Source: a virus. From it: a stretch of DNA of 29,280 bases. The translations under genes and the position numbers were made by a program. Shown here piece after piece: positions 1,795 to 28,292 of the stretch. Where the stretch lies: IMG/VR virus record IMGVR_UViG_3300045988_140557, positions 1 to 29,280 of that record. One strand, written 5' to 3'. Every line of letters begins with the position of its first letter. Within the stretch, counting starts at the first letter, position 1. Under the pieces are notes generated by a model. The model was given only the letters and a program-made list of their open reading frames with translations, was not told the origin of the DNA and searched no databases.

Positions 1795-1797
1795 AAG

Positions 1798-2652: not shown

Positions 2653-2653
2653 A

Positions 2654-6194: not shown

Positions 6195-6239
6195 AATTTT
6201 ATTATTTAATATGTTATTACTTGTTTTATTATTGTACTA

Positions 6240-6271: not shown

Positions 6272-6347
6272 TTTTTTAGGTATTATTTTTATTATTTTCA
6301 AAAAAATATTACTATTTGTATTTTTATTATATTTTAATAAAAACAAT

Positions 6348-6833: not shown

Positions 6834-6852
6834 AAATTTATTATTATATTTG
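6822..6852 (+). promoter_or_regulatory. Promoter candidate: TTTG-N19-TATATTTG.
   Basis: TTTG at 6822-6825 and TATATTTG at 6845-6852. It overlaps the end of the T5orf172-HTH gene. Confidence 0.45.
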
Positions 6853-6900
6853 TAGTGTAAAGAAAAAAAATAATTTTTATTAAAAATAATACCTAAATTA

Positions 6901-6932
6901 TTTGGAAGTATAAAAATAATGTTGTATCTTTG
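6901..6932 (+). promoter_or_regulatory. Promoter candidate: TTTG-N20-TATCTTTG.
   Basis: TTTG at 6901-6904 and TATCTTTG at 6925-6932. The -7 box and the following GTAGTA are shared with the 6240 promoter. Confidence 0.5.
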
Positions 6933-6960
6933 TAGTATGAAACTAAAACTAATAATTCTA

Positions 6961-6986
6961 GGCAGGTGAAAATCCTGCCACTTTTT
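6961..6986 (+). terminator. Intrinsic-terminator-like hairpin, GGCAGG tgaaaat CCTGCC followed by ACTTTTT.
   Basis: 6-bp GC stem, 7-nt loop and a T-run. It lies about 30 nt downstream of the 6925 promoter box and 10 nt upstream of element B. Confidence 0.55.
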
Positions 6987-6995
6987 GAATCTTAC

Positions 6996-7045
6996 TGTCA
7001 AGTTTTTTACTCAAATTTAGTAGTAAGAAAATAAAAATATTGACA
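6996..7045 (+). repeat. 50-nt intergenic element, copy B: TGTCAAGTTTTTTACTCAAATTTAGTAGTAAGAAAATAAAAATATTGACA.
   Basis: It carries the 18-nt invariant core and the TGTCA...TGACA termini. Confidence 0.85.
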
Positions 7046-7075
7046 AAAACTTTAACTATTTAAATTATTAAAATT

Positions 7076-8797: not shown

Positions 8798-8811
8798 AAA
8801 TATTATATTTG
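8780..8811 (+). promoter_or_regulatory. Promoter candidate: TTTG-N20-TATATTTG, ending 5 nt before ATG 8816.
   Basis: TTTG at 8780-8783 and TATATTTG at 8804-8811. The mRNA would have a very short leader or none. Confidence 0.45.
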
Positions 8812-8815
8812 TGAT

Positions 8816-9094
8816 ATGGAAGGCGATATTAAAGAAACAATTAAACAAACAGAAGAGTATATTAAAGAATTGGATAAATGAATACTTGAGTGTAAAGAAG
8901 CTACTAAAAGATTTGGAGATATTATAGACAAAGTATTAAAAGATAAAGATTATTTATTTCTAAATTTGATTAATTATGGATGATTTATTAAAAAAGCTTG
9001 AAGAACTGGAATACATAATAGTTCAATTAAACGAACTGAAGGGAGGTTTAGTTTGGGAAGAAGTAGAAGAAATGCCAAAACCAGAAATTACTAA
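8816..9094 (+). CDS. Small ORF with an uncertain end: 21 aa under table 11, 55 aa if TGA 8981 terminates, 92 aa under strict table 4.
   Basis: MEGDIKETIKQTEEYIKELDK-TGA-ILECKEATKRFGDIIDKVLKDKDYLFLNLINYG-TGA-... The part beyond 8981 overlaps the next ORF out of frame and looks non-coding (rich in R/S). Confidence 0.3.
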
Positions 9095-9113
9095 TGCAAC
9101 ATATACTGATTAA
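8976..9113 (+). CDS. Small acidic coiled-coil ORF (45 aa).
   Basis: MDDLLKKLEELEYIIVQLNELKGGLVWEEVEEMPKPEITNATYTD. TAA stop. The start lies in an ATGGATGA overlap with the previous ORF. Confidence 0.4.
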   Translation: MDDLLKKLEELEYIIVQLNELKGGLVWEEVEEMPKPEITNATYTD

Positions 9114-9114
9114 T

Positions 9115-9258
9115 ATGAAATACCAAACCTATAAAGTATGCATAAATGGAGTGTATTATGTATATGTAATACCAGAAAATAGTAGGTTTTTAGTGGACTT
9201 ACAAACAGGAGATTTAATACCTAAAGAAGATGATAAATTATTTGAAATGATGGAATAA
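9115..9258 (+). CDS. Small ORF (47 aa).
   Basis: MKYQTYKVCINGVYYVYVIPENSRFLVDLQTGDLIPKEDDKLFEMME. TAA stop, followed by a terminator. Confidence 0.35.
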   Translation: MKYQTYKVCINGVYYVYVIPENSRFLVDLQTGDLIPKEDDKLFEMME

Positions 9259-9262
9259 ATGA

Positions 9263-9290
9263 AAATAGGAGGGTTTATGCCCTCCTATTT
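9263..9290. terminator. Bidirectional terminator hairpin at the convergence of the plus and minus blocks.
   Basis: 11-bp stem AAATAGGAGGG / CCCTCCTATTT with a 6-nt loop and A/T runs on both sides. The HNH stop codon lies inside it. Confidence 0.7.
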
Positions 9291-9608
9291 CTGTTTAAAT
9301 CTTTGATAATTACTAACCGATGAATGAATAGCTTTATGACAAACTGAACATAATGTTATTAAATCTTCCAAATGTTCCTGCTCATTATATAAATTCTCAT
9401 ACGTCTTATGATGTACCGATAAAGACCTATTTCCGCCTTCCTGAACGCATCAATTACAAGTTTGGCAGTGGTAGTTATCCCGCAATAATATTTGCTCTCT
9501 AATGGCCTTAAAATCCTTTGATCTTATATATCTTTGGTACTTTAAATATTCTTCACTTCTTACTTTCTTCTTTGTCTTATGAAGCAGTTTACTTGATTTG
9601 GAGTCCAT
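9285..9608 (-). CDS. HNH endonuclease (107 aa; TGA at 9450-9452).
   Basis: Absent from the track. Translation: ...NYHCQTCN-W-CVQEGGNRSLSVHHKTYENLYNEQEHLEDLITLCSVCHKAIH. This gives CxxC ... HH ... CxxCH. TAG stop. Confidence 0.8.
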
Positions 9609-9610
9609 AA

Positions 9611-10063
9611 TTATATAATTGTAAATTTCTGTCTTCTCTGCAAACCCTCTTTATTCTTCAATCCTAAATGAATTCAACTAGCTATTCCATTTCTAGGTTT
9701 CTCATAAATAAGTTGATCAAAATCATACTTTTCAATAGCTTCAGTAATCCAAACCTGAAATTCTTTCATTTGACCATTACTTGGAATTATATCTGCTGCA
9801 TATCCTGTTAGATGGGCAGATGTCAAAGATCCTCTTACAGCTTTATTAAGCTCATTACATCTATAACCTGAATTCACACTTATTGCTGGATTTCCCAACC
9901 GATTAACATCACAATACTCTGCCCAATCACTTCTTAATGGGTCTAAAAGTTTCTCGACTAACTCTATAAGGTGTTCAGTAATCTCTTTATTTGGAGTATT
10001 ATCTATCTTCTTAATAGAAGCTGTATCAGATCTTGTTAATTCACTAATAGTAAAATATTTCAT
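9611..10063 (-). CDS. Endolysin, peptidase M15 (VanY / L-Ala-D-Glu peptidase-like), 150 aa. The track ORF 9674..10063 is extended through TGA 9674.
   Basis: SGYRCNELNKAVRGSLTSAHLTGYAADI matches the M15 SxHxxGxAxD motif. Read-through adds ...NGIAS-W-IHLGLKNKE..., which supplies the C-terminal W-x-H region. TAA stop at 9611. Confidence 0.8.
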
Positions 10064-10224
10064 TATTTAATAATATCTTTAAGCATAGTATAACGGTAAA
10101 ATAAATGACATCCAGCACCAAGTGCTATGAGTACTAATGTAATCCAAAATGGAATTACTTTTACCATTAAAAATACTAAGATTATAATTACTATTGCTAT
10201 TAAATATTTTATCCAATATTTCAT
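10063..10224 (-). CDS. Holin-like protein with two transmembrane helices (53 aa).
   Basis: MKYWIKYLIAIVIIILVFLMVKVIPFWITLVLIALGAGCHLFYRYTMLKDIIK. TAATG overlap with the endolysin start. Confidence 0.55.
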   Translation of the reverse strand: MKYWIKYLIAIVIIILVFLMVKVIPFWITLVLIALGAGCHLFYRYTMLKDIIK

Positions 10225-10227
10225 AAC

Positions 10228-10881
10228 TTATTTATTTAAAATTATACTTACTTTAATTCCTGCATCTCTTAGTTTTACTCAAGTATCAACTGGCATCTCA
10301 TTATCACAATAAGATAAGCCTAAAACTCCAATATCTCTATCTTCTGATTTTAAATAGAATATTGCAATCTTATTAACACCATTAGATTTAAATGCATAAT
10401 ACATTCTCCTATCTAATTCCTTTATATCTTCAACATCTCCGAATCATCCGCCTTTTTTAGATGTTTTCAATATAAATAAATAATCAGATAATAGGAAATC
10501 TTTATAATGACTTGAAACTGGAGCAACTCCAGGTTCTGTTTCTTCACTATTCATAATTCCATAAGTAAATGGAAGTCCTCCTAATCCTGAAGTGCCATTA
10601 TGATACTCAATAACTCAAGCTCTATCTGCATTCGTATCATTTAAAAGATCTTTAATAATATATCTAACCTTAAGATCTGCTTCTTGTCGTATTACTTGAT
10701 TAGTATTATGAACTGTTTCTATATAACTTACAACTTTATCATATATTATTCCTGGATTAGTACTTATAATTATTACATAAGAAATAAATATAAATCCAAA
10801 TCCACCTTTAATTATTTTCCACAGTCCATATTTATCTACTCATTCTAATACTTTTCCAAACCAGTTTAATTTATTTTCCAT
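10228..10881 (-). CDS. N-terminally anchored membrane protein (217 aa; TGAs at 10840, 10615, 10444 and 10279). Possible lysis accessory protein.
   Basis: Absent from the track. I verified the triplets line by line. Translation: MENKLNWFGKVLE-W-VDKYGLWKIIKGGFGFIFISYVIIIS... TAATG overlap with the upstream gene. TAA stop. Confidence 0.55.
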
Positions 10882-11306
10882 TACATATTATCAGAACAAG
10901 TACCCAGAGTGTTGTCTACAGCTAAATCAACTCTAACAAATACTCCAGTGCAAATATCTTTAAACTTCTGATAAAATGGAGTAAAAATTAAAGGATAAGA
11001 AATATCAACTTCTGGATATTGGTTATTAAATCGGTTAATTATATTAGTTAATGCTAATATTCCAGCTGATTGCTCTTCAAGCTGATTATTATCAGTCTCA
11101 TCCCATCTTGCTATAAAATAGAGATTTAAAGAGTAAGTAATAGTATCCTCATCCATATTAAATGTATTTGGAGTTATATAAAATACATTATATTCAATAG
11201 TTGGGATACTATTAAGTTCATATATATCCTTACTTCCTACAAAATTAATATTGGGTTCTTCAAGAGCACAAGCCTTTAAATTGTTTATTAATTCAAAATA
11301 CGTCAT
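10881..11306 (-). CDS. Hypothetical virion/neck protein (141 aa, taking ATG 11306 as the start).
   Basis: The ATG lies 1 nt after the upstream stop. The longer track start (11408) would overlap the connector gene by 100 nt. Confidence 0.45.
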   Translation of the reverse strand: MTYFELINNLKACALEEPNINFVGSKDIYELNSIPTIEYNVFYITPNTFNMDEDTITYSLNLYFIARWDETDNNQLEEQSAGILALTNIINRFNNQYPEVDISYPLIFTPFYQKFKDICTGVFVRVDLAVDNTLGTCSDNM

Positions 11307-11307
11307 C

Positions 11308-11991
11308 TTACTTACTCTTTTTATTGTTATCACTTGAAGGGAAATCATAAGCTCTTTGTAGAGGACCTTCACAAGAATTATATCTCCAATCTTTACCTCT
11401 AGCTCCACCTAACCAAATAGTACAAGATGAACTTGAATACATATTTGGATACATATCTTTAAGAGGTTTATAAGAATACAATTCAGGAAAATCATTATAA
11501 TATGTAATTACCCAATTTTGCAATCTTGTTTTAAAGAAATCTGCTTTATCTCTATAATATTTCTTAATAAGATTAACTTGATTAATATCAGAAGTTAAAT
11601 CTTTCTCATCATCAGTCCTCATAACCCCAAAGTTACTAAGCTTAAACGAAATAGGTATAGTAATCTCACTTAATACTTGATAAAGTAAATAAGGCTGAAT
11701 ATAGTAATCTAGCAATTCTTTATATCTATGATTTTCTGGGTCATCTATAGAAGTAGGATCATAAATAGGAGGTTCTATTGGATGAACTGGTTTATTTGGA
11801 TCTTTTCAATCAATTACTAATTTCTGAATCTTTTCTAAGAGCTTAGTTCCAATTAATGACTGAAGCTCAATATCTTGTGCAAGTTTAATTGCTGACTGAA
11901 GATATTTACCAGAAACATTATTGTCTAGATTAGATTCTGATTTTATATAATCTTCAGATATTAATAGTACATTTCTATAATTATTTTCCAT
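11308..11991 (-). CDS. Head-tail connector/adaptor candidate (227 aa), made of fragments 11806..11991 and 11308..11715 joined through TGA 11806.
   Basis: The two fragments share a frame and the gap has no TAA/TAG. The N-terminus ISEDYIKSESNLDNNVSGKYLQSAIKLAQDIELQSLIG resembles gp6-type adaptors. It lies directly downstream of the portal gene. Confidence 0.45.
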
Positions 11992-13073
11992 TATTCAACT
12001 TGTTTAGTATCAGCTTCATTAAGGCTAAATGGTGAAATTGTGATTGAATTCTGCATTCCAAAAATCTTATCAAATGAATCACAAATCTCTTTCTGAATAG
12101 GTCTAATCATAGTTCTATTATAAAGCTTGAATGAAGATTCAAATTCTTGCTCATTAAAACCAGTTGAATCTGAGTTAATTCCAAATAAGTTAGGATTAGC
12201 TCGGAAGGCACAGAATATTTGATCTCTGGTTCTCTCAGATAATGATTGATATTTCTCATCAAAATCATCAGAATCTAATCTTTCAATAGTAGTCTTATTT
12301 GCCTCATCTGCATTATATGAAATCAATATTCTGCCAGCATTCTGATAACCAGAGAACTTCTCATTAATATTCCTCTCAATCTCCTCTCTAATTTCATCTG
12401 TAGGTTCCCCATTATTAAAGTTAATAATAAGATTACCCATAAATCCATTATTGATGTTATTTAAATGGAATTCATTAATATTTTTCTCAGTTTCACAAGA
12501 TAAAATAGCGGCTCCATAAACAGGAATAGGATATACTCCTCTTGTTATATAACCTTTATTATAAAATATACTAGCTGGATTTTCATCTCCAGCTCCAAAT
12601 TTTGGATATTTTATAGCTTTTACAGACCAAGCTGTCCAATCAGTTGCATAATATAATATATCATTCTTTTCACTTGACCTTACATTCATAAAATCAATAT
12701 GATAGATCTCTGCAACTCTTCCGAGCATATCTCTAATTACTTGGATAGCATAACCTCCAAATATCATCTTATCAATAGTGATTTTTCTCATTATATCAAC
12801 TATTGTTTCACCTTTCTTGTTTACAACTACTTCAAATCCTGGAGCATTACATTTAACATCATTACCAACAATAAAGTCAGCAGAACCATTAATGATAGAT
12901 TGGAGAGTAGCAACATTTAAATATAAATCCCATAGATATAACGGATATTTGTTATCTTCTCCTCACATTACATAATCTTTTCCTCTTGCTTTAGTTTCTG
13001 TAGGTAATACGATATTACTTGCAATAAATGGATCAATAGCGCTTAACTGAACTTTTGTTTTATTTTCGCTCAT
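11991..13073 (-). CDS. Portal protein (360 aa). The track ORF 11991..12791 is extended upstream through TGA 12963 to ATG 13073.
   Basis: The extension reads MSENKTKVQLSAIDPFIASNIVLPTETKARGKDYVM-W-GEDNKYPLYLWDLYLNVATLQSIINGSADFIVG, which looks like a portal N-terminus. The body is acidic and helical. Confidence 0.65.
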
Positions 13074-13452
13074 AACTTACGTATGTATTAGGTTTGTCGT
13101 ATTGATAATTATTATTTTCATAATCTCCAATTCTTATTAATCCTGTTCCCAATATAGGTATTGGTTTACCAGCAACTAATATCTGAGTACCATTAGTAAG
13201 AGTATTATTATATGTAACCAGAATAACTGGATTACCATATAACTCTGATCTAAATGGATTGTTTACATCAACTATAACTTGAAATTTATTTGGATTAGTA
13301 AATAAAATATATTGATATTCACCGTCTCTCATTCCTTCTTGAAGTGTAATATCAAACTTATAGTAGATATTCTCAGAATAATTCTGATTTTCAAGATTAA
13401 ATGTATAAACTTCTTTAGTAGTTGTATTTTGAAGAATTAAACTGTAGTTCAT
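13060..13452 (-). CDS. Hypothetical beta-rich protein (130 aa).
   Basis: Intact ORF with a TAA stop. It overlaps the portal start by 14 nt. Confidence 0.45.
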   Translation of the reverse strand: MNYSLILQNTTTKEVYTFNLENQNYSENIYYKFDITLQEGMRDGEYQYILFTNPNKFQVIVDVNNPFRSELYGNPVILVTYNNTLTNGTQILVAGKPIPILGTGLIRIGDYENNNYQYDKPNTYVSYERK

Positions 13453-13453
13453 A

Positions 13454-13482
13454 TTTTACATAGTTTTACATTACTTTTACAT
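13454..13482 (-). repeat. Three tandem ATGTAAAA repeats (10-11 nt period) abutting start codon 13452.
   Basis: Plus-strand TTTTACAT occurs at 13454-61, 13464-71 and 13475-82. Confidence 0.8.
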
Positions 13483-13527
13483 ATCTTTTTCTTAAAATAT
13501 AAACCAATTTACTAATGTATTAAAATA

Positions 13528-13555
13528 ATTAAAGGAGACCTAAGCCTCCTTTAAT
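13528..13555 (-). terminator. Hairpin ATTAAAGGAG / CTCCTTTAAT (8-nt loop) abutting element C.
   Basis: 10-bp inverted repeat. On the minus strand it is followed by a T-rich tract. Confidence 0.5.
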
Positions 13556-13604
13556 GTCAAGTTTTTTACTCACTCAAAGTACTAAGAAAAAATAAAAACT
13601 GACA
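13555..13604 (+). repeat. 50-nt intergenic element, copy C: TGTCAAGTTTTTTACTCACTCAAAGTACTAAGAAAAAATAAAAACTGACA.
   Basis: It carries the 18-nt invariant core. It starts 1 nt after the stop (13606) of the LRR paralogue on its right. Confidence 0.85.
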
Positions 13605-13605
13605 A

Positions 13606-14592
13606 TTAGTTTGAACTTGCTAAAGTTCAGTTTTTAGATGCAGCTAATGATTTCTGTTCCTCAGTAAGTGCATTATAAACGTTAGTATAAAAAGTTAAAG
13701 TTTTGGTATCCTTTCCAGTTAAATCACTAACATTTGTAATAATATCAGTTACTGATTGACTATTTAGTACTCTAAAATTTGCTAAATTCATACTTTTATC
13801 AGCTCCTTCAACACCCCCAAAATAAGTTACAACACTACTAGCTGTACCACAAAGTGCTGTTTTATTAAGATCTTGGTATAAAGAACAATTTGTTAATTTT
13901 ATTTTACCTACAGATGTGATATTAGATGAATATGAGCTAAAATACTGAGTAAAAGTTACTTGCCCATTTATAACTTCAATTTCAGGGACACTAATAGGAA
14001 CAGCAGAATCAGTAGTTACTTGATTAAAAAAATATTCTAATGCACATACACTAGTTTCATACTTATTTGTTATTGTTATATTTTTTGGAAAAGATGAGGA
14101 TAAATAAAATGTGCGCGTACAATATCCTCAACTAGCGGATTGAGGATTAATAAATTCTAGAGTATCAATACTGCCTGCAAAACTAGAAAATGTATATGAA
14201 CGTTCGGCCTGCAGTTTTATCTCATTAATATGTATATTACTAGCATATTGAAATGTTCTTTCCGCAGCATATAATATATCTGGATTAATATGATCAGATA
14301 TATCAATAGGATCTTGAAATGAAGCCATATGAAATCAATAATTACAATCTTGTGGAATTTCATATTCAACGTTATCATAATGATCTTTATCCATTTTAGA
14401 ATTTGAAAATGTTAATCCATAATCATTTAAATTAATCTTTCCTCCACCTCCAGAAATCTGTCCTATCTTATCTGCATAGCTTCTAAAGGTATCTGAATCT
14501 GATACAGCAACACCTTTAGCTACAATAGCATCTTTAATGGCACTCTTAGTACCTTCAAGATACGTTAATTTATCAGAAATTGTATTTGCCAT
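13606..14592 (-). CDS. Receptor-binding-type protein, LRR paralogue 3 (328 aa; TGAs at 14335, 14128 and 13627).
   Basis: Fragments 14335..14592 and 14128..14328 plus the untracked 13606..14127 share one frame, which I verified line by line. The C-terminus ...VYNALTEEQKSLAASKN-W-TLASSN is paralogous to the other two. Confidence 0.6.
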
Positions 14593-14593
14593 A

Positions 14594-15031
14594 TTAGATT
14601 ACTTCACCATTAATTGTATCAAGAGTAGTTGAAATATTACCAATCTGAGCTTGAATTGCTGAGATTTCTCCATCTAACTCTGTCATCTTTGTATTATATG
14701 CATCTGTAGTTACATAGTTTGATAACTCACTTTTATCTGCTTTAAGTGCAACTTCTCCTTTAAGATTAGTAATCTCAGTATTAATTGGAACAAGTTTAGC
14801 ATCAATAGATTGATCTACTAAAGGGGGGACTTGCTCTTCAATACTTTCTGTTACTTTAGTATCAATTAACTCTTCTGCTTTCTCTTCAGAAATGTAATTA
14901 CCTTTAGGTTGGAATCTTTCATCTGCTTCAATCTTAGTATAAGAACCAACAGGAAGTTGTCCAGATTCAATACCACATTTCTTACTTACATAGAAAGTTT
15001 GTGTATTTTTAGTATTCTTAAGTATAATCAT
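14594..15031 (-). CDS. Coiled-coil fibre-associated protein (145 aa).
   Basis: Intact ORF with heptad-like repeats (...NLKGEVALKADKSELSNYVTTDAYNTKMTELDGEISAIQAQIGNISTTLD). Confidence 0.4.
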   Translation of the reverse strand: MIILKNTKNTQTFYVSKKCGIESGQLPVGSYTKIEADERFQPKGNYISEEKAEELIDTKVTESIEEQVPPLVDQSIDAKLVPINTEITNLKGEVALKADKSELSNYVTTDAYNTKMTELDGEISAIQAQIGNISTTLDTINGEVI

Positions 15032-15033
15032 AA

Positions 15034-15270
15034 TTATCTAACTTTTATTGATTCTTCATACTCTTTTGAAGCTTTAATAGCTAATTCTTTATATTCAGAA
15101 TCCTGCTCTAATGTTATCTCTCTTAAATGTTCTAAATCACAATTTAATGGACAAATACACTCTTTAAATGAGTTATACCCTTTAATATCCATTTCGTCTT
15201 TATAGTTAGTAAGAAGCATATTATCTTCAGGTTTAACTACTTTATACTTTTCTTTAATTTCAATTTTCAT
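15034..15270 (-). CDS. Hypothetical acidic protein (78 aa).
   Basis: Intact ORF with a TAA stop. Confidence 0.4.
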   Translation of the reverse strand: MKIEIKEKYKVVKPEDNMLLTNYKDEMDIKGYNSFKECICPLNCDLEHLREITLEQDSEYKELAIKASKEYEESIKVR

Positions 15271-15277
15271 AGTGTAT

Positions 15278-16195
15278 TTAATTAGAATATGATATTGTTC
15301 ATCCTTTAGAAACTATCTGGGCTTTTTGATCTTCAGTTAAAGAGTCAAAGATTACTTTATTAAAAACAATAGTAGGATTCTTAGATGCGTCTGAATATAG
15401 TCCTTCTATTATATTATTTATAGATTGAACAGTAAGTGCAGGTAATCCTCCTAAATGTAATGTATATGTAGTCATAGTGACTCCCATCCCAATATTTGTA
15501 AAACCTCCAATATCTGTAAGTAGGGTGAAATCTTTAGATTCTTGATCTCTCTCATCATCAGTTCTGAATAAATCAGAAAAATTACTCCAGTTACTTGCAT
15601 CATATTGCGGAACAGATTGAAGCCTATAACAGTACCTAAACATTTGATAAACAGTAACTTTTTCAGTTGAAGAAAAAGTTATCTGAGGTGCTGTTTTTAA
15701 TTGTTCTGAATATCTAAATAATCCAGTACAATCTACAGCATTAGATAGATCTAATGGATCTATTTCTGTAGCTCCAATTCCAGATAAGGCACCATACATC
15801 CTCTTTTTACCAATAAAAATATCAGGTAATATATATGTTAAACTACGACATCCAGCAAATAAATAATACAAATCAGTATCTGTATTTTCAGTAATATATT
15901 TTTGAGCATCTATAGATGTAGTTAACTGATACTGTAATGATGAATCTGCTCTAAATATAGAAGTTTTTGGGTTAGATGAAGTAGGATTTATATATCAACT
16001 AATAACATCTGGATTATTACATTCTGTAATTATTGAATTTACACTTCCTAAATATTGTCTTGCAACTGCTTTACGAAAAGTATCATCTATAAATGGAATT
16101 GGAGGACAAGGCCAGACTTTGGTACTGCCAACATAAATAGCAGTACCTTGTCTGTCACCTACATAAAATGTTTTTAAATTATCTCGAATATTCAT
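15278..16195 (-). CDS. DUF285/BspA-like LRR protein, paralogue 2 (305 aa; TGAs at 15995 and 15299).
   Basis: Fragments 15995..16195 and 15299..15871 share one frame. It has LFAGCRSL, GLFRYSEQL and QMFRYCYRLQSVPQYDASNWSNFSDLF repeats. The C-terminus is ...SLTEDQKAQIVSKG-W-TISYSN, ending at TAA 15278. Confidence 0.6.
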
Positions 16196-16196
16196 A

Positions 16197-18284
16197 TTAC
16201 TCTACAATTAAATATTGAGTATTTGGATCTTTAGTTGATAAACTATCATACTCTGATTGAGTTAGAACAGTAATAGTATTTATTTGAGGTTGGGTTCCAG
16301 TTCCAGCTTCAATATAGTTTCCAGCAGGCTGAATACCTAAATCTGATAAACTCTTATTGCCAGATAACTCAACAGAATTAATCTGAGGTTTATTTGTTAA
16401 CTGAGTATAATCGGTAGTCCCTCCACTACCAGATATTTCAAGATTACCTTCTCCTAAAATACTTTCACCATTAATAGTCTTTATATTAGTCCCAGAAACT
16501 AACTCTTCTTGTAATTCTTTATCATAAGTTTCTACCATAACTGGTTGATTTTCTATAATATATGCCATCAGAGTTATGTTATTAGTTTCTGATAAATATG
16601 TTGCATAAGCAATAAAGATTCTCTGAGATTCTGAAGAGGCATACTGTCAATAATTAGAGGTTAACGTCATTTCAGTAGTTTTAATTCTAATTAAAACAGC
16701 TCTATTATTTGCCGCAGCTTCTGCAACTCTATTAAAATCTGTCTCATTTGGTATTTGCTCATTTTCTACTGTAATAGAAGGAACATCGCCTACATTAATA
16801 TTACCTTCCCCTAATAAAGAAAGATTGTTAATTGTTCTAATTGATTCTCCACTAACAAGAGTATCCTGTTTGGTAGCCATCTCTTTATCAAGAGAATCAA
16901 TCTTTTCACCATTCTCTGCAACTGTACTCTTTAAAGTACTAATATCTGTACTATTAGTAGCTACTTCTCCAGATAAAGATTCAACTGTAGTAGAATCAGC
17001 TTTAAGAGCTAATTGTTCATCAACATAAGTCTTATCTGCTTTACCTGCTAAATCCCCAGATACTTCAGCTTCAGTTACAAAGTTGGAATCATTAGTAAGC
17101 TCACTAACTTTAGTTGGAATATCACTTTTTAAAGCATAATCCCCAGCTGGTTGATATCCAGATAAATCTACAGATAATTGGGATTTATCTTCATTAAAAG
17201 CTAATGGAGCTTGAGGAGCAAATACGCCTTGCTTAGTTGCAAGTTTCTCATCTACTTCTTCTTTAGTATAGCCTTTATTAGTAAGATCAACTTCTGTTGT
17301 CTTAACAGTCATTTGACCATTATTAACTATAATAGCATTAATTGTTACTAATACTCTATTATCTTTAAAATAGTATCCATATAAATCAATAGTATTAGTA
17401 TGCTCTACTACAGTCATTGGGACCACTATAATATCTTCATTATATGTTATCTGCCCAAATAAATAGAAGTCCATATTACTTCTAATAAAGTTATATATTT
17501 CTAACTGTCTATCTGGATCATTTACATCTAAATTTAAGAAGAAGTGATTCTGAAATGCAGATATTACATTATCAACAATAGATATATTAGCACCAGCAGT
17601 TAGTATTCCTTGTTTTGCATTTATAGCTTTATTAATTTCTATATTTAATTGGTCTATCTCAGCCTTTGTATATTTATCTGATAACTGAGCATATAAATCA
17701 GCATTAATTAGACCTGCAGAATTAGTTTCAGTATTATAAACAGGAAGTTCTTCAGCGTCTCCAGTTTGATTTCCAAGTATTGGAGCTATTGTTACTTTAT
17801 CAGGAATAGCTTTAATCTGAATTGATGGAACTATTACTGTAGGATTAATAAGCTCTGCCCCATTTAAAGATGGTTTGTTACGAATAGTATTATAATCTGC
17901 AGAAACAGTATTCTCTTCAATTACTATACCATCACCTTGAACAAGTGTATTTTGCTTTCCAGCAGTGGCTTCAGTAATCTCTGCAGTTACCTCTTCTTTA
18001 GTTGGATAGTCAGCTAGTTTCTCAGTAATCTGATTATCAACATCTTCAATAGAAGGAATTCCTAATTCTTTAGAAGGAACATTTCCATTTAATTCAACCC
18101 CATTAATTTCAGGCTTAAATTGAAGATCTTGATAGTTACTTGATCCTAACTGAGAACCATCCATAACCTTTACCTCATCATCTTTATCTATTACTATAAC
18201 CTTAGTAACATTTGACTTATCAATTGTATCTACTTCTAATACATTTAGGTAAGGCAGAATTGTCTTTTCAGTTTCGTTTGCCAT
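16197..18284 (-). CDS. Tail fibre (695 aa), made of fragments 16647..18284 and 16197..16568 joined through TGA 16647.
   Basis: Both fragments carry the same repeat families. These are (D/N)Y(Q/T/N)xLxxKPxINGxEL (three or more copies) and (T/S)INxxS(I/L)LGEGN(I/L) (two copies), plus QPAG(D/N)Y (two copies). Confidence 0.65.
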
Positions 18285-18297
18285 AATATATTATTTA

Positions 18298-19527
18298 TTA
18301 AATTAAAATCCAGTTTTTACCTGCAGCAACAGCTTTCTGCTCTTCAGTTAGCTTATCTAAATTAGTAGTTCCTAAAGTTAGAGTCTTTTGGGAAGATCCA
18401 ACTAAATTTGCAAGTGCATCAATAGTAGCTACTAAAGAATCTACTGTTAATTGTTTACAATCTGATAAAGTTAAATCCTCTTTAATACTACCATAAAAGT
18501 TTAATCCAGTTAAAGCTTGACAATTGTAGAACATAGAACTCATATCCATACAATTAGTAAGATTAATCTTACAAGTTTGTAAAGCAGTACAATCTTGGAA
18601 CATATAAGAACTATTCATTAAGTTCTCTGTATTAGAATTAAAATGAATTAAACTTGAACACTCCCTAAACATAGAAGATGTATTACCTACTGATGGCATA
18701 TCAAATACAAAATCTTCAACTACTGTACAATTATCAAACATACTATGTGCATTAGTAAGACTTGTAAAAGATCCTGCTGCAAAGTTTACCATTCCAGTGC
18801 CTGAGCTATGACTGAACATTTGGAATCCAGTTTCAAGAGCTGGAAGATTAAATGTATAAGCAGAATTGAAATCTGTTAAATAACATTTATTAGTTCCATC
18901 AACTAATGTATCCCATCCACTTACTAATCCAGCATCTGCATCAGTAACCCCAGCTAAACTTGTATATTTATCATTAATATTTGGAGTTGAAGTAGTTGGA
19001 ACATTTACTGTTACTTCTAACATCTCTATATAATCATATCCATCTCCAGGAATGATAGTTGTGGTGCCATTTTCTGTAATAGATACTTGCTTATTATCTT
19101 CAACAGGTATTTCTACATCTACCTCAACTCTTGAAAGTCCTGTATATCCAGAATCAGCAGTAATTTCAGTCATTGAAATATTTTTATCTATAGTTATATG
19201 TTTATTCTGTAAAGTAGGAGCAGGCACATTAATAGTAGCTTCAACTTTTTCCATAACATCATAATCAGAGTCAGGAAGAATCTCTATTGGTCCATTCTGA
19301 GTAATTGTAATTGCTTTGGAAGCTTGAACTGTAGGAACTACTACATCAACAGATACATTTACCTTAGACATTCCATCATACCCTTCATCTGGCAGTACTT
19401 CAAACTCTGCATTTTGAGTATATTCTACTGATTTTTCTTGTAACTTACATTCAGCAGCTTTAATTAAATCTAAATTTTTAGTTGTAGTATTTTTAGCTAC
19501 TGGTTCTGATGTGAATACTATTGCCAT
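18298..19527 (-). CDS. DUF285/BspA-like LRR protein, paralogue 1 (409 aa), with four N-terminal ~35-aa repeats.
   Basis: The SMFxxCxxL units recur about every 24 aa (HSMFDNCTVV, SSMFRECSSL, SYMFQDCTAL, SSMFYNCQAL). The N-terminal repeats follow I(T)xNGxxxIxPdxGYDxxxxVxVxV. The C-terminus is LTEEQKAVAAGKNWILI. Confidence 0.65.
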   Translation of the reverse strand: MAIVFTSEPVAKNTTTKNLDLIKAAECKLQEKSVEYTQNAEFEVLPDEGYDGMSKVNVSVDVVVPTVQASKAITITQNGPIEILPDSDYDVMEKVEATINVPAPTLQNKHITIDKNISMTEITADSGYTGLSRVEVDVEIPVEDNKQVSITENGTTTIIPGDGYDYIEMLEVTVNVPTTSTPNINDKYTSLAGVTDADAGLVSGWDTLVDGTNKCYLTDFNSAYTFNLPALETGFQMFSHSSGTGMVNFAAGSFTSLTNAHSMFDNCTVVEDFVFDMPSVGNTSSMFRECSSLIHFNSNTENLMNSSYMFQDCTALQTCKINLTNCMDMSSMFYNCQALTGLNFYGSIKEDLTLSDCKQLTVDSLVATIDALANLVGSSQKTLTLGTTNLDKLTEEQKAVAAGKNWILI

Positions 19528-19580
19528 ATTATTTTTCTATAAAATATAAATTATTCATTATGTGGTATATAAACAAAATA

Positions 19581-19608
19581 AGGGGCAAGTAAATTAATAC
19601 TCGCCCCT
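19581..19608 (-). terminator. Rho-independent terminator after the capsid-tube operon.
   Basis: On the minus strand, GGGGCGAGT ... ACTTGCCCC (one mismatch) is followed by TTATTTTGTTT. It lies 11 nt after the stop of 19619..20143. Confidence 0.65.
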
Positions 19609-19618
19609 CTTTCTGTTA

Positions 19619-20143
19619 TTAAGCACCTACAACGCTTTGGATAGCTTCTGCAGATAACTCATAAGGATAAGAATCTGAATCTGTTGAAAGTGTCAGAGTA
19701 TAAGCATTCTGATCACCTTTAGCAGTACCAGTAACACCCGTACCAGCGGAAGCGCTTACATAATCATCTTTACCTAAGAACCAATACTTACCATTGCTGT
19801 CTTCAACAACAACTGCAAGCTGACCAATTGATAAAGCTGCAATCTCTACTCGTTTTGCGGTTTCCATCTTTGTAAATACAAGAGCAAGCTCATTACTTAC
19901 ATAATTAACACCCGCACTTTCATCTACATTTAAAGTTGAGGTTAGAGAACCAGTAGCCTTTCTAAATTGGTAGTTATACCATTTAGCTGAAGTCTCAAGA
20001 GTAATAGCTGAAATCATATTGCTATCAGGATCAACCGTTACACTCTTAACATCTGCATACTGAGTAATCCAGACCTGTTTGATACCACCCAATGAAGGTT
20101 GGCAATCAAGTGTGATTCCTGCGATAGTTATTAAACAAGCCAT
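19619..20143 (-). CDS. Major tail (tube) protein candidate (174 aa); a capsid accessory protein is the alternative.
   Basis: Intact ORF with no TGA and elevated G+C like the capsid gene. It lies directly after the MCP and before a strong terminator. It has a beta-rich composition. Confidence 0.4.
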   Translation of the reverse strand: MACLITIAGITLDCQPSLGGIKQVWITQYADVKSVTVDPDSNMISAITLETSAKWYNYQFRKATGSLTSTLNVDESAGVNYVSNELALVFTKMETAKRVEIAALSIGQLAVVVEDSNGKYWFLGKDDYVSASAGTGVTGTAKGDQNAYTLTLSTDSDSYPYELSAEAIQSVVGA

Positions 20144-20183
20144 AATTTCAATATCATTTAGAAGTTAATAAAATCTATTGAAA

Positions 20184-21089
20184 TTAAGCCTTGGCACCTA
20201 ATACTACTTCATCAGGGAAAGCAACTTGTACACCAGCGTTAAATTCAATAGCTAATCTGAACTCGCGGAAATCCTGTGAATACCACAATTCGAATTTCTC
20301 TTCGTCGTTCATCATATCTACACCATAGAAGAAGTTCTTGTCTAACTGACCAGCAACAATCTTATCAGTTCCATTAAGACCATTAACAGCAATAACTTTA
20401 ACCTGCGAACCAGGAAGATAAATCTCACCATCAAGGCTCTCTCCGCTATAGTGGAAATAATTCTTCTCAACAAGTTCATTTACGAACTTACGGAACATAT
20501 CGGCACCAACAAGAATAGAAGCGCCATCAAGAACCTTCTCAGGAATTGCATTATAAACTGCCATAATGTCAGTATAAGCAGATGCTCCAGCAATTGCTAC
20601 ATCTACAGTGCCAGCATCAGCAGCAAGAATCTTAAGCAGACCGTCAAAATACTTCAAGTTATTAGTAGCTGAAGTCGTATCACCCTGCCAGATAGCTACC
20701 TCAATAGCCTCTTTTACATTCTCTACAACAGCATTTACGAAATCCTCTTCAAAAGGAAGCGTCTTCTGACCAGCGGCTACCTTAACTGCATACTGAGTCC
20801 AGTATTTCAGCATAGCCTTATCGCAATATGCCATATTAATCTTAATATTACCAGTCTTAAGAATTCTCTGCGAAAGAGTCTGAGTTCCAGCCTCATCCCA
20901 ACCACAAGTAAGACCATCACCGAACTGCATATCGGTAGATAACAGGTTAAGAGCAGCATCAGTTTTAATATCTGTCTGAAGATTGAACAAACTTGCACTC
21001 TTAGCTTTTAAAACAGCTTCCTTAATAAGAGGGAGACGTCTTTGCTCCACATAAGCAGGAAGCGTTGCCATTACAGGACTATTTGCCAT
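20184..21089 (-). CDS. Major capsid protein, HK97-fold type (301 aa).
   Basis: It follows the protease and scaffold genes. It has the highest G+C in the window. It has no TGA and four TGG. Confidence 0.7.
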   Translation of the reverse strand: MANSPVMATLPAYVEQRRLPLIKEAVLKAKSASLFNLQTDIKTDAALNLLSTDMQFGDGLTCGWDEAGTQTLSQRILKTGNIKINMAYCDKAMLKYWTQYAVKVAAGQKTLPFEEDFVNAVVENVKEAIEVAIWQGDTTSATNNLKYFDGLLKILAADAGTVDVAIAGASAYTDIMAVYNAIPEKVLDGASILVGADMFRKFVNELVEKNYFHYSGESLDGEIYLPGSQVKVIAVNGLNGTDKIVAGQLDKNFFYGVDMMNDEEKFELWYSQDFREFRLAIEFNAGVQVAFPDEVVLGAKA

Positions 21090-21110
21090 AATTATTTAAA
21101 ATTTTATAAA

Positions 21111-21716
21111 TTAACCAATAAAGTTTTTAAGCTTTCTATCTATTTCTGCTATCCCACTCATAGGAGCAGTTGTTTTATTTTCAAGTGTTTCCTCTGCTGA
21201 AAAAGCAGCACTCATCTTACTCATTTTTTCTACAGTCTTTTCAGTAGCTTCTGATTTTCCTTCAAGTTCTGCTACTTTCTTAACAAGCTTATCTACAATA
21301 TCGTAAAGCTCATTAATTTCGCGATGAATAGCGTCGATTGCATCAGTCTCAGTTTCTTTAACACCGTCTGTTTCAACAGCAGGATCAGCAACTTCCTCAG
21401 CTTTTACTTTCTTAGTTCCACAAGCAGCATCAACCTCAACAGTTCTCATACCCTCTTCTGGATCAACTTCAGCTTTAGGATCAGTAATGGATTCTACTTT
21501 ACCGTCTTTAACAACAATCGTTTTGCCATCCTCGGTAACATACTCACCATCAGCAGCAGGTGCATATTCGCCATTTTCATCAGCTACATAAACATCCATA
21601 CCTTCTCTCAGATCCTCATCTGAATCCCAAGTAAGCACAGCCTTGTCAGTTTTAACATCACTGAACTTTGCAAGCATCTTAGCTAACTCAAGTTTAATTT
21701 TTGTGAATTTACTCAT
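21111..21716 (-). CDS. Scaffolding protein (201 aa).
   Basis: Highly acidic, Glu/Lys/Ala-rich helical protein lying between the protease and the MCP. Confidence 0.6.
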   Translation of the reverse strand: MSKFTKIKLELAKMLAKFSDVKTDKAVLTWDSDEDLREGMDVYVADENGEYAPAADGEYVTEDGKTIVVKDGKVESITDPKAEVDPEEGMRTVEVDAACGTKKVKAEEVADPAVETDGVKETETDAIDAIHREINELYDIVDKLVKKVAELEGKSEATEKTVEKMSKMSAAFSAEETLENKTTAPMSGIAEIDRKLKNFIG

Positions 21717-21722
21717 AATTAA

Positions 21723-22316
21723 TTAATGTTTAACTCTTTTTATTTTTCTCAACATTTTTTGAATCTCTTTAAGTTCCTCATATTCATCAGACTGTCTTTC
21801 TAAAGTGAACAATCCCTCAATAGAGAATCCTTTAAACTTGCCAGCTTTAATTGCATCCCATATAACAGGATTATTTACTTTATAAGTAGCAAATAATGAA
21901 CCATCTGGACAATCAGCAAATTCAACTGGATTAATTCCTCTATCTATATCTTTAATATATAGCTCTTGAAGAATTATTCCAGGAATTACTGAATCTTCTA
22001 AATGTTCAATATTTACATCAGTAGTTCTCTTATCATACATCATTTTTTCAGCCATTAAACGGAGAGTTTCTTTATCATATTGAATATAATATTCTCCGTT
22101 TTTACTATCCCGTCTAAATATAGGTATATCACATACCATTAAACAAGAGGTAACTATATGTTTTTCTTCATCCATCGAGAACTTCTGAGATTCCCCAAAA
22201 GCAAGCCAATTAACTTGGGTTGCAGGTTTACTGGTCAATGCTACAAACTCTATTCCATCACAATCATCAGCAATAATTGCTTGATATAATGGAAGATCAT
22301 TATACATTTTTTCCAT
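21723..22316 (-). CDS. Prohead protease candidate, XkdF-like (197 aa).
   Basis: It is the first gene of the head module, immediately upstream of the scaffold gene. The N-terminal pattern LPLYQAII...GIEFVALTSKPA resembles XkdF-type proteins. Confidence 0.45.
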   Translation of the reverse strand: MEKMYNDLPLYQAIIADDCDGIEFVALTSKPATQVNWLAFGESQKFSMDEEKHIVTSCLMVCDIPIFRRDSKNGEYYIQYDKETLRLMAEKMMYDKRTTDVNIEHLEDSVIPGIILQELYIKDIDRGINPVEFADCPDGSLFATYKVNNPVIWDAIKAGKFKGFSIEGLFTLERQSDEYEELKEIQKMLRKIKRVKH

Positions 22317-22395
22317 TTTTTATTAATATATAAGCTATTTTAAAAATGTAATATTGTTACAATCTTTTATTTTTATATATTTATATATTATCAAA

Positions 22396-22444
22396 TGTCA
22401 AGTTTTTTACTCACTTTTGTATCTAAGATAAATAAATTTTGACA
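22396..22444 (+). repeat. Intergenic element, copy D (49 nt): TGTCAAGTTTTTTACTCACTTTTGTATCTAAGATAAATAAATTTTGACA.
   Basis: It carries the 18-nt invariant core and the TGTCA...TGACA termini. Confidence 0.85.
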
Positions 22445-22495
22445 TAGCACTACTATATAAGCACTGATAATCAGCAACTTACATAGTAGTATGTC
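22441..22495. repeat. Long imperfect hairpin bridging element D and the partial copy E.
   Basis: GACATA(gca)CTACTAT pairs with ATAGTAGTATGTC, giving 6+7 bp with a 3-nt bulge. The 26-nt loop contains its own CTGA/TCAG mini-stem. Confidence 0.7.
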
Positions 22496-22513
22496 AGAAA
22501 TTTTACTCACTTT
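22492..22513 (+). repeat. Partial element copy E (TGTCAGAAATTTTACTCACTTT) overlapping the tape-measure stop codon.
   Basis: 18 of 22 nt match the 5' end of the element consensus. Confidence 0.7.
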
Positions 22514-24845
22514 AGAAACTTGCATTTGATTCTGTAACTGCAACTTTAGTTTGAGCGTTAGTAATATCACTCTCAACTACATAACATTTAACAGGTTGAT
22601 TCAATTCATCAGTCTCTTTATTGCCAAGTAAGTTTCGAGTATATTCTACAGGAGCAGTATTTAAAGCAGCAGGAGCAGTAGTTCCTGCATCACTTCCAGA
22701 ACCACCCGATGAAGGTAATTGTTCATTTTGGATAGCCTTAACATTAGCAATACCAGCTATAACAGCTGTAGCAGCTGCAATAGGAGCAAGAATAGGACCT
22801 ACAAAAGGTATACCTACCATAGCTTTATATGCACCTTGAGCAGAACTGATAGTATCAATAATAGCTTGAGTAGTAGCTAATGCTTTATAAACTTTAAATG
22901 ATTTCTCTCTTTGCTTCTCTGATTTTGAATCATCACTGGCTTCTTGTTTAAATACATTAGCTAAAGCTCCACTTAAAGAAGAAGCCACATTCATAGTTGC
23001 TTGAATAGCTTGTTGTTTTTTAGCTTGTCTATCTTTAAATGCTTGAAGATCTGCTTCTTCTCTTGCATTAGCAGCTTCTGATAAAGCTATATCATTAGCT
23101 TCTTGCTGTAATTTAATTGCTTGAGATTGATTAGCATATTCTTGTTCAGTTATCAGTTTATTATTATATTGCTCATCTAAGATAGCTTGCTGTTGAGACA
23201 TCAATTCATTCTCTCTTGTAATTCTTTCTTTAGTGAGATTATATAACTGTTCATTATAAGCTAATGTATCTTGATATTGTCTTTGAACATCTTCTCCAGA
23301 TTGATAGAAATCAGTTGAACCAAATTGTTGAACTCTAGTTTCGTAACTTCCAGATTTACCTGCAGATAATGCAGCCTCTTTATTTGCAAATAATTGAGAT
23401 TCCCTATCCTGCATTTCTTGTAATGCAGACAATCTATTTTCTAAGTCTTCCCTATAACGTTCATTATTATTATCTAGTCACTCTTTATTATATGCATCAT
23501 TTACCTGCTTTAATCTCTCATTATATTCTTTAACTGTTATTAATTTGAGATTGTAGGCTTCTTTAAGTGCATCTAATTGATTCTGGTAGTTTCTATTTAA
23601 TTCATCAAGTTCTCTTGCTTCATCATCTAAAAGAAGCTTCCTATTTTCTTCATAGAAATCGTTAATAACTTTAAGCAGATCTTGATTATGTTTCTTTCTA
23701 TCTTCTATATTCTTTAGATACTGAGCTTTAGCATCTTCTCTCTGCTTACGTTCTGCAGCAATCTCCATTAACTTAACTTTTTCATAAGCTTCAGCAGATT
23801 TTTGCATCAAATCATTACGTTTCTCAAGATAAGTATTATAAATACCAGAAGCTTCATCATAAGCTGCTTTTTGATCATCATTTAACTTACTTAAAAAGAA
23901 ATCAACTTCATTAGAACTATTCTTTAATCCTCATTGTATGGCTTCGGAATAATCTTCCCAAGTTTCATATCCAGATTTCTTAAATTCTTTTTTGAAGTAT
24001 TTATTACTTTTAAGTATATTAGTAAATGAGTCAGAATATGCTTTAGTTACACTACCAAATTGTTGAAATAATTCAGCATCTAAATCTCCTAATGCTTCAG
24101 CATAATCTTTCCAAATTTGTATTTCACTTTTTTTACCAGCAGCTAAATCTCTCTCTCTTTGTCTCTCTAATCCTGCAATTTCAGTATTAGCTCTGGCATA
24201 GCTTGTTCCTCATTGATCAGTTATATCTTTTAAACCAGAAATACTAATTTTTAAATCATCAATTCCTGATGCTGCTTTAATTGCAAAATCTATTAGCATA
24301 CCAAGAGCTACAACTAAAGCCCCAATTCCTGTAGATATAATTGCAGACCGTAGCACACCCATTGCTACAGATAATCCTCCAGTTGCAGCCGTAGCACCAC
24401 CCATTGCTACAGATAAGGCTTTAAATGATTTTACTCCATTAAGAATACCTTCACCTAAACCTTTTAATCCTCCTATTCCTTGTACTATGGCAATTGCTGC
24501 TTGCAATTTAACCATAGTTTTTTGAAGATTCTCTGTATCTTTTCCAAATAAAGTAAATGCTGCACTAACAGCTGAAACTCCTCCAGCTAAACCTCCTGCT
24601 ACTTGATTGATACTGTCAAACGCCTTAACTGCATTTACAGTTTTACCTTGCATAGATTCTGTAGCAACACCTAACTTATTTTGAACATTAACAAGTTCTT
24701 CAAGCTTTTTAGTATAGTCAGTACTACCAATCTCAAGATCTTCAAGTTCAGCCGTCAAGCCAGCTACTTCTTCTCGTAGCTGCTTGATCGACTTTGAACT
24801 AGTTTTAGTATCTATACTAATTACTTTTTTAATTTCTTCAGCCAT
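22512..24845 (-). CDS. Tape measure protein (777 aa), made of fragments 24210..24845, 23478..23810 and 22512..23432 joined through TGAs 24210, 23931 and 23478.
   Basis: All fragments share one frame and I checked the gaps triplet by triplet. It has long coiled-coil segments. It also has Gly/Ala-rich hydrophobic blocks (GGLAGGVSAVSAAF, GGATAATGGLSVAMG, VGPILAPIAAATAVIAGIANV). Confidence 0.7.
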
Positions 24846-24846
24846 A

Positions 24847-28290: not shown

Positions 28291-28292
28291 AA

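Follow-up and report, generated by a model that had tools for sequence, protein, structure and literature searches.

A conserved tryptophan position written as TGG or TGA supports tryptophan recoding in a small uncultivated phage

Reassignment of TGA to Trp is already known in gut phages. In the crAss-like, Jade and Agate code-4 phages, in-frame TGA aligns with Trp, and the genomes, mostly of 100-200 kb and of animal or human gut source, are low in GC, prefer TAA and have lost the TGA stop; structural and lysis genes are heavily recoded, early genes are in standard code, and some genomes carry a tRNA-Sup(UCA), RF1 or TrpRS (bioRxiv 10.1101/2021.08.26.457843). The Garnet and Topaz recoded phages, of 24-34 kb, include prophages in standard-code Prevotella and Oscillospiraceae; they are temperate, read TAG as Gln and have a recoding-free integrase (bioRxiv 10.1101/2021.08.26.457843). 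Phages of Absconditabacteria and Gracilibacteria use code 25, in which TGA is Gly, and need no suppressor tRNA of their own (PMC10746230). In published work, a suppressor tRNA was detected in only 35% of genomes recoded at TGA.

The window, that is, the whole stretch of DNA analysed here (1..29280), is a complete circular phage with 34 genes and 29% GC, made up of a 29,225-bp circular unit and a 55-bp assembly overlap. The sequence very strongly suggests that this is an uncultivated tailed phage of gut-type metagenomic origin, whose complete genome uses TGA as a sense codon for Trp (code-4-type). Like the crAss-like, Jade and Agate phages, it is low in GC and of gut source, has heavily recoded structural and lysis genes, prefers TAA and has lost the TGA stop (TAA 30, TAG 4 and TGA 0 across the 34 genes). 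Unlike them, it is complete at 29 kb, has no tRNA and no code-change gene that could be found, and carries TGA in genes of every module except the head module g28-g32. It resembles the Garnet and Topaz phages in size and in a host that is probably from Bacteroidota, with about 57% of genes recoded against 71% in Garnet, but it shows TGA to Trp instead of TAG to Gln, and no integrase was found in the genome. With the code-25 phages it shares TGA as a sense codon genome-wide, but Gly is never the aligned residue.

In-frame codons total 44 TGA and 70 TGG, the TGA codons being spread over 20 of 35 gene calls. The terminase, portal, tape-measure and tail genes are full-length only if TGA is read as sense (code 4), and the public gene calls of the contig agree with this model. 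Megablast of 12 kb of the window against INPHARED gave no match, nor did tblastn of the major capsid protein and g20 against cultured phages. Every examined member of the phage family is recoded.

The three genes considered here lie on the minus strand of one cassette and may all encode tail-fibre or receptor-binding proteins that end in the same capping module of ~60 residues. The putative receptor-binding or tail-fibre protein g28 (18298..19527, 409 aa, no in-frame TGA) consists of N-terminal beta repeats, a DUF285/BspA-type LRR region and the C-terminal module (residues ~349-409, 18301..18483, by hhalign and HMM boundaries). It ends ...KLTEEQKAVAAGKN-W-ILI-stop, with Trp406, the reference Trp of the module, translated from TGG at 18310..18312. 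In g26 (15278..16195, 305 aa, module at 15281-15454) the in-frame TGA codons are at 15995-15997 and 15299-15301, and the end reads ...SLTEDQKAQIVSKG-TGA-TISYSN-stop. In g23 (13606..14592, 328 aa, module at 13609-13800) they are at 14335-14337, 14128-14130 and 13627-13629, and the end reads ...ALTEEQKSLAASKN-TGA-TLASSN-stop. The positions and C-termini given for these codons by the first-pass annotation were reproduced by translation. Between the three genes, and on the same strand, are the 695-aa tail-fibre protein g27 (16197..18284; Phage_tail_C tip, Pfam PF24243, E = 2e-9), with a single in-frame TGA (16647-16649), and two genes devoid of TGA: g25 (15034..15270, 78 aa), to which no function is assigned, and g24 (14594..15031), a 145-aa coiled-coil-like fibre-associated protein. 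On the 3' side of g23 there is a terminator-like hairpin (13528..13555, minus strand), preceded by a conserved intergenic element (13554-13587). None of g23, g26 and g28 received a functional name from PHROGs or NCBIfam.

The three proteins had been described as paralogous LRR proteins. The module is indeed homologous in all of them, but it is the only part detectably shared, and g28 is the only probable LRR protein. Homology detected by hhalign is restricted to the last 55-62 residues (probability 97%). With X in place of the disputed column, BLASTP gave E = 1e-9 for g23/g28, 2.6e-6 for g23/g26 and 0.006 for g26/g28, and each of the three copies scores about 1e-24 against a column-masked HMM. 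No Pfam or NCBIfam model covers the module, which carries the cap motif ...LTxEQKxxAxxK[GN]W[TIV][IL]. In the Pfam scan, g28 matches DUF285 just above the cutoff (25.2 bits against 25) and LRR_5 below it (22.8 bits), g26 has a sub-threshold match to DUF285 (E = 0.03) and g23 lacks any LRR match. The AF2 model of g28 (pLDDT 84, above 90 for residues 190-409) predicts an LRR fold, whose best PDB matches in a fold search are BspA-type LRR proteins, all of them weak (E at least 0.015). In its MFxxCxxL-type repeats and its predicted LRR solenoid, g28 resembles the DUF285/BspA-type LRR surface proteins (PF03382, PF13306; PDB 4h09, 4fs7, 6mlx). The element common to the three proteins is the C-terminal cap, and g23 and g26 are not demonstrably LRR.

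The first-pass annotation had also placed the two TGA codons exactly at the position of the g28 Trp, and masked alignment, HMM and hhalign all agree (13627..13629 in g23, 15299..15301 in g26). With 3 TGA among the 328 codons of g23 and 2 among the 305 of g26, the probability that both genes have one on the single invariant-W column by chance is ~6e-5. Among 30 copies of the module, taken from the window and from 17 related contigs or loci and aligned after masking of the column, with X standing for TGA, the codon is TGG in 20, TGA in 10 and nothing else. The exchange can be seen between orthologues whose flanks are almost the same, as one locus has ...KN-TGG-SINRVA (L004) where three others have ...KN-TGA-SINR[IV]A (L003, L005, L006); the latter three also retain ...KN-TGA-TLASSN in their g23 orthologues.

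A profile search of 1.84e9 protein representatives matched the module in 8,496 cluster representatives. In the best 150 of these matches, the column is W in 157 of 157 full module copies, and the module lies at the very C-terminus in 131 of the 157. For standard-code relatives, GTDB was scanned with a search pattern that leaves the disputed column out. The 15 standard-code MAG loci recovered have TGG in 13, TAT (Tyr) in 2 and Gly in none. The alignment with database homologues proposed at the outset thus gives Trp, rarely Tyr in standard-code relatives, and no Gly. In two standard-code loci, L018 and L032, a TGA directly follows the motif, where homologous proteins end, which is consistent with a stop there.

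Could the TGA codons of g23 and g26 be real stops, the proteins ending ...KN and ...KG, with no translation of the six codons up to TAA? Only seven codons separate each of them from the end, and spacing to the next gene would stay normal after truncation. Against such stops, none of the best 150 of the 8,496 matches terminates just before the W column, and the orthologues either retain TGA with the same tail or have TGG there. Homology also continues beyond the TGA as W-[T/I/V/S]-[I/L], so the shared motif does not end before it; T-L in g23 and T-I in g26 fit this pattern. In the g28 model the W is predicted to start the last beta strand (E406-408), after a helix at 395-403. Since 42 other in-frame TGA codons occur in the genome, including those inside the terminase, the portal and the 1147-aa tail protein, we consider termination at these two sites highly improbable.

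The Trp meaning is also supported by the rest of the genome. In X-masked alignments, TGA is paired with a non-TGA codon 46 times: with TGG in 29 pairings, with Tyr or Phe in 11 and with other residues in 6; by distinct sites, W accounts for 21 of 33. The background in aligned columns is 5.7% Gly and 0.7% Trp. An independent test site is provided by the endolysin g16 (Peptidase_M15_3 by Pfam, 9611-10063, minus strand), with no sequence match in PDB, in which TGA codon 130 (9674..9676) aligns with W in 5 of 5 endolysins of cultured standard-code phages.

These data bear on a code-25 meaning, in which TGA would be Gly and the host a member of the Gracilibacteria or Absconditabacteria. Code-25 phages infecting these groups have been described (PMC10746230; bioRxiv 10.1101/2021.08.26.457843), and a phage without tRNA, with TGA across its modules and low GC, would suit hosts that have peptidoglycan, low GC and phages needing no suppressor tRNA. 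However, Gly is the partner in 0 of 46 pairings and 0 of 33 distinct sites despite its share of aligned columns, the module column holds W, or occasionally Y, in every homologue, and the endolysin site is uniformly W, making this meaning extremely improbable. TGA is also the selenocysteine codon of bacteria. In this phage 20 genes have it, at a total of 44 sites, Cys (TGT) is the partner in 1 of 46 pairings, Rfam detected no SECIS or Sec-tRNA element and the module column is Trp in homologues, so that we regard selenocysteine as a negligible option. The earlier proposal that TGA stands for Trp and not for Gly or selenocysteine is therefore supported by the 157 W residues in the database copies, the 13 TGG and 2 Tyr codons in the 15 standard-code loci, the TGG/TGA exchange between orthologues, the genome-wide pairings and the endolysin site.

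A simple history very probably accounts for the cassette. An invariant Trp sits two to three residues before the end of the conserved part of the module, and under strong A+T pressure (29% GC) a single G-to-A transition would have changed TGG into the now-synonymous TGA in g23 and g26, g28 retaining TGG. Translation would therefore pass both TGAs and reach the TAA six codons downstream. TGA is not a neutral synonym: it accounts for 39% of Trp codons, where other NNR pairs have 70-88% A-ending codons, and the head module g28-g32 has none (0 of 12, p = 0.003), which marks it as a disfavoured codon.

The reader of TGA would be a UCA-anticodon tRNA charged with Trp. ARAGORN and Rfam found no tRNA in the phage genome, and about 100 related loci also have none. 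Relaxed ARAGORN, including intron and mitochondrial modes, gave only matches of aberrant length, every one with a tca anticodon being inside a gene. The one element that emerged when intergenic regions were compared with those of relatives is repeated and associated with promoters or terminators, and no tRNA-like RNA was seen; Pfam scans covering 23 of the 34 genes detected no release factor or aminoacyl-tRNA synthetase domain. Since the phage encodes no tRNA, the decoder would have to be supplied by the host or by something unrecognisable in the sequence. TGA is present in the genes opening both divergent transcription units (g9 codon 25, g7 codon 35, g11 and g13), which are candidate early genes by position, so decoding would have to be available from the onset of infection.

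A scan of GTDB genomes with the major capsid protein found no prophage and no binned contig, and hence no direct host. For the endolysin, the portal and the tail-tube-like g29, the closest or only cultured relatives are in Bacteroides and Nonlabens phages. A Shine-Dalgarno motif precedes 2 of the 34 genes, one relative carries a BACON-domain protein, and g17, a small membrane-protein ORF, adjoins the endolysin g16. The host suggested by the endolysin, the portal, the tail tube, the lack of Shine-Dalgarno sites and the shared fibre genes is of Bacteroidota type, for which the standard code would be normal.

It is possible, if somewhat doubtful, that the host itself reads UGA as Trp, being Mollicutes-like or of an unrecognised code-4 lineage, and that the phage shares its code. 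The lack of tRNA in a complete genome and in about 100 related loci would fit, as would TGA in the candidate early genes of both divergent units, the absence of TGA stops and the recoding of all examined family members. Moreover, a ~168-kb phage family with ~96%-identical fibre segments has TGA at 65-72% of Trp codons, and DUF285 is a family rich in Mycoplasma members. However, the Peptidase_M15_3 endolysin and the neighbouring g17 argue against it, because a host of a phage with an endolysin should have peptidoglycan, unlike the known code-4 Mollicutes. The relatives in Bacteroides and Nonlabens phages, the scarce Shine-Dalgarno motifs, the BACON-domain protein and the under-use of TGA also disagree with such a host, and we know of no code-4 Bacteroidota gut lineage.

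The Bacteroidota-phage affinities and missing Shine-Dalgarno motifs would instead fit a standard-code Bacteroidota host in which TGA is suppressed during infection by a factor not detectable here, as would the avoidance of TGA in head genes and its under-use overall; our confidence in this second account falls just short of balanced. The factor may be a non-canonical RNA, a modification of host tRNA-Trp, RF2 inhibition or a suppressor provided by a co-resident recoded phage. On the other hand, intergenic space is small and has no conserved tRNA-like element, early-looking genes already need TGA decoding, and the 23 genes covered by Pfam yielded no release-factor or tRNA-synthetase gene. For a fully TGA-recoded, tRNA-free family whose features point to a peptidoglycan-bearing, Bacteroidota-type host, the explanation could be either an unrecognised gut bacterial lineage that natively reads UGA as Trp or phage reassignment of UGA in a standard-code cell without an encoded suppressor tRNA, although we rate this pair of outcomes as unlikely.

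Reading the residue aligned with an in-frame stop translated as X is a published method (bioRxiv 10.1101/2021.08.26.457843). The comparison of three paralogues is the within-genome form of it and thus adds no novel type of evidence; the control itself is genuine and correct, and illustrates a known recoding. Annotation of this genome and of ~100 relatives from IMG/VR and other metagenomes needs TGA as Trp, since without this reading over half of the genes come out truncated or split, and the three-gene cassette offers a compact teaching example of TGG drifting to synonymous TGA. A small, complete, tRNA-free genome with TGA in probable early genes and Bacteroidota-phage signatures is also a clean test case for those recoded phages that lack an explanation, in which the question is who decodes TGA.

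A 148-kb IMG/VR contig was considered as a prophage in a host genome and rejected, as it is a join of a ~168-kb TGA-recoded phage and a family member. The junction lies within a shared fibre gene. Window positions 16443-16875, in g27, are 95.8% identical in nucleotide sequence to a fibre gene of a contig that is chimeric with a large recoded phage.

Three minus-strand genes of the window, g28 (18298-19527), g26 (15278-16195) and g23 (13606-14592), end in a homologous module with an invariant Trp position (the column), which is TGG in g28 (18310-18312) and TGA in g26 (15299-15301) and g23 (13627-13629). These C-termini and codons exactly match those of the first-pass annotation, in which TGA was taken to be Trp. 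With the disputed residue written as X, BLASTP found C-terminal similarity at E = 1e-9, 2.6e-6 and 0.006, a column-masked HMM gave ~1e-24 per module copy, and the hhalign probability for the module was 97%. The motif does not stop before the TGA; past it the similarity goes on as W-T-L and W-T-I, which fit the family pattern W-[TIVS]-[IL]. The same annotation had called the genes three paralogous LRR proteins. Their common C-terminal module is real, but LRR character is demonstrable for g28 only, the one protein to reach the Pfam DUF285 threshold, and when g23 and g26 are aligned with the g28 family profile to profile, the match is limited to the last 55-62 residues. In the AlphaFold model of g28 (mean pLDDT 84; >90 for residues 190-409), N-terminal beta repeats, an LRR solenoid and a helix-strand cap are predicted, W406 starting the final strand of the cap; the best PDB fold matches, which are weak, are BspA-type LRR proteins. 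The ~60-residue module (...LT.EQK..A..K[GN]W[TIV][IL]; 18301-18483 in g28) occurs in 8,496 cluster representatives, nearly always at the extreme C-terminus, and has no model in Pfam, NCBIfam or PHROGs.

Among 396 homologues of g28, mainly on metagenome contigs of 25-33 kb, every one extending to the C-terminus has K[NG]W. Because some of these proteins may be translations under code 4 (TGA read as Trp), codons were examined directly. A comparison in which the column was masked and TGA became X covered the window and 17 contigs that are related to it or share the module. It found 30 module copies, whose codon at the column is TGG (20) or TGA (10) and no other. Some orthologues differ solely at this codon, with ...KN-TGG-SINRVA in one relative (L004) and ...KN-TGA-SINR[IV]A in three others (L003, L005, L006). 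A profile search of a library of 1.84 billion protein cluster representatives pointed the same way: among the best 150 of the 8,496 matches, Trp occupies the column in 157/157 full module copies, 131 of them at the extreme C-terminus, no protein ends just before the column, and rows without Trp are confined to partial hits on an unrelated LTxxQKxLV repeat.

Standard-code relatives were sought in one genome per GTDB species, using a search pattern without the column. The scan gave 15 loci (GC 36-52%) in MAGs of Acutalibacteraceae, Ruminococcaceae, other Clostridia, Alistipes and Elusimicrobiaceae, with an ORF structure essentially equal under either code. The column is TGG at 13 of them and TAT at two, both copies of one phage; Gly was found at none. 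At two loci (L018, L032) TGA lies directly after the motif, at the end point of homologous proteins, consistent with its being a stop there. The copies with Tyr (TAT) are on 31-kb phage contigs, L024 (JAZUSQ010000024.1) and L025 (JAZUPW010000065.1), which have identical statistics over the fetched stretches and were placed in different bins, an Elusimicrobiaceae MAG and an Acutalibacteraceae MAG. This binning is a warning that host calls from bins are unreliable for these phages.

Sense TGA is not confined to the module. A code-4 reading of the window yields 35 gene calls, in which in-frame TGA occurs 44 times (in 20 of the calls) and TGG 70 times, and stops are TAA (30) or TAG (4), never TGA. 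Only with TGA as sense are the terminase, the portal, the tape-measure protein (3 TGA) and a 1147-aa tail protein (6 TGA) intact, and public gene calls for the contig follow the same model. All window proteins were compared with code-4 ORFs of related loci, TGA being X on both sides and only well-aligned columns being used. The non-TGA partners of TGA codons were TGG (29), Tyr/Phe (11) or other residues (6), with no Gly among the 46, against a background in aligned columns of 5.7% Gly and 0.7% Trp; by distinct TGA sites, Trp was found at 21/33 and Gly at 0/33. Codon 130 of the endolysin gene (...IAS-TGA-IHLG) is opposite Trp in 5/5 endolysins of cultured standard-code phages, which infect Bacteroides, Achromobacter, Burkholderia, Pseudomonas and Brevundimonas. 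Together, the column homologues, the genome-wide pairings and the endolysin site exclude Gly (code 25, described in other phages; PMC10746230), selenocysteine, and real stops at the C-terminal TGAs of g23 and g26, and bear out the first-pass claim that TGA is Trp.

TGA is a disfavoured codon in this phage, making up 39% of Trp codons as against 70-88% A-ending codons in other NNR pairs. The head/tail-tube genes g28-g32 (g29-g32 at 19619-22316), with a GC content of 36-37% versus 29%, use TGG for all 12 Trp codons and TGA for none (Fisher p = 0.003). The most highly expressed genes seem to avoid TGA.

TGA-to-Trp recoding has already been described in gut phages, and the method of masking in-frame stops as X to see which residue lies opposite them is published too (bioRxiv 10.1101/2021.08.26.457843). 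The three-gene comparison demonstrates the recoding correctly, and unusually tidily, from within one genome, and any real novelty would lie only in the missing decoder. ARAGORN and Rfam (E <= 1) found no tRNA gene in the window; relaxed ARAGORN settings gave only candidates of aberrant length, and those among them that have a tca anticodon are all within genes. No tRNA was found in ~100 loci of relatives, nor release-factor or synthetase domains in Pfam scans of 23 of the 34 genes. Since a suppressor tRNA is reported to be detectable in only 35% of TGA-recoded phages, and small recoded prophages are documented in standard-code Prevotella, this is a known gap (bioRxiv 10.1101/2021.08.26.457843).

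Both divergent transcription units have TGA in their first genes (at codon 25 of g9 and codon 35 of g7, and also in g11 and g13). A host that natively decodes UGA as Trp would fit a phage and relatives without tRNA, the lack of TGA stops and the recoding of the whole phage family. The known code-4 bacteria are wall-less Mollicutes, and against these stand the peptidoglycan endolysin g16, adjoined by a small membrane-protein ORF (g17); the best relatives of that endolysin in cultured phages, which are enzymes of Bacteroides phages (50% identity); a portal that matches only Nonlabens (Flavobacteriia) phages; a tail-tube-like g29 that matches only Bacteroides and Nonlabens phages; a Shine-Dalgarno motif upstream of just 2/34 genes (background 9%); and a BACON-domain protein in a relative. 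The endolysin, the portal, g29, the Shine-Dalgarno scarcity and the BACON relative point to a Bacteroidota host, for which the standard code is expected. Suppression of TGA by undetected means in such a standard-code host is about as likely as native decoding. The sequence before the start codons of all 34 genes is A/T-rich; scarce Shine-Dalgarno motifs with A/T-rich upstream sequence are typical of Bacteroidota and their phages.

A ~168-kb phage family (L066, L115, L131, L123-L136), which is very heavily recoded, with TGA making up 65-72% of Trp codons, and of which IMGVR_UViG_3300029720_000001 is an example, has fibre-gene segments in common with the 29-kb family, one with 95.8% nucleotide identity to window positions 16443-16875. 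In IMGVR_UViG_3300045988_175865 (148,631 bp; L066, L115, L131), the two are joined inside that fibre gene, either as an assembly chimera or by real exchange. Whichever the origin of the join, it suggests a common host.

The window (source contig NODE_371_length_29280, ENA assembly ERZ1689618) has 55 identical bp at its ends (1-55 and 29226-29280), a k-mer overlap, and the genome is therefore circular, with a length of 29,225 bp. One tail gene (725 aa) crosses the junction, its halves, g1 (1-1245) and g35 (28293-29279), being cut at positions 1 and 29279; joining them leaves 34 genes. GC is ~29% and nearly all genes are on the minus strand. Pfam identified a large terminase (g4), portal (g21), prohead protease (g32), Peptidase_M15_3 endolysin (g16), HNH nuclease (g15) and tail-fibre tip (g27). 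The phage is tailed and belongs to an uncharacterised 29-31-kb family, and a 12-kb megablast against 50,697 deposited phage genomes gave no nucleotide match. A probable extra gene of ~110 aa (4246-4581, minus strand), without TGA and overlapping the annotated start of g5, is not counted in the 35 calls. TCTTA(C/G)TACTAAAAGTGAGTAAAAAACTTGACA, an intergenic element of 33 nt, has four copies on the minus strand (1797-1830, 6995-7028, 13554-13587 and 22395-22428; 0.02 expected) and is kept in close relatives. Three of the four copies are followed by a GC-rich hairpin, which differs between them, and a T run, and the element probably serves as a promoter or regulatory site next to terminators.
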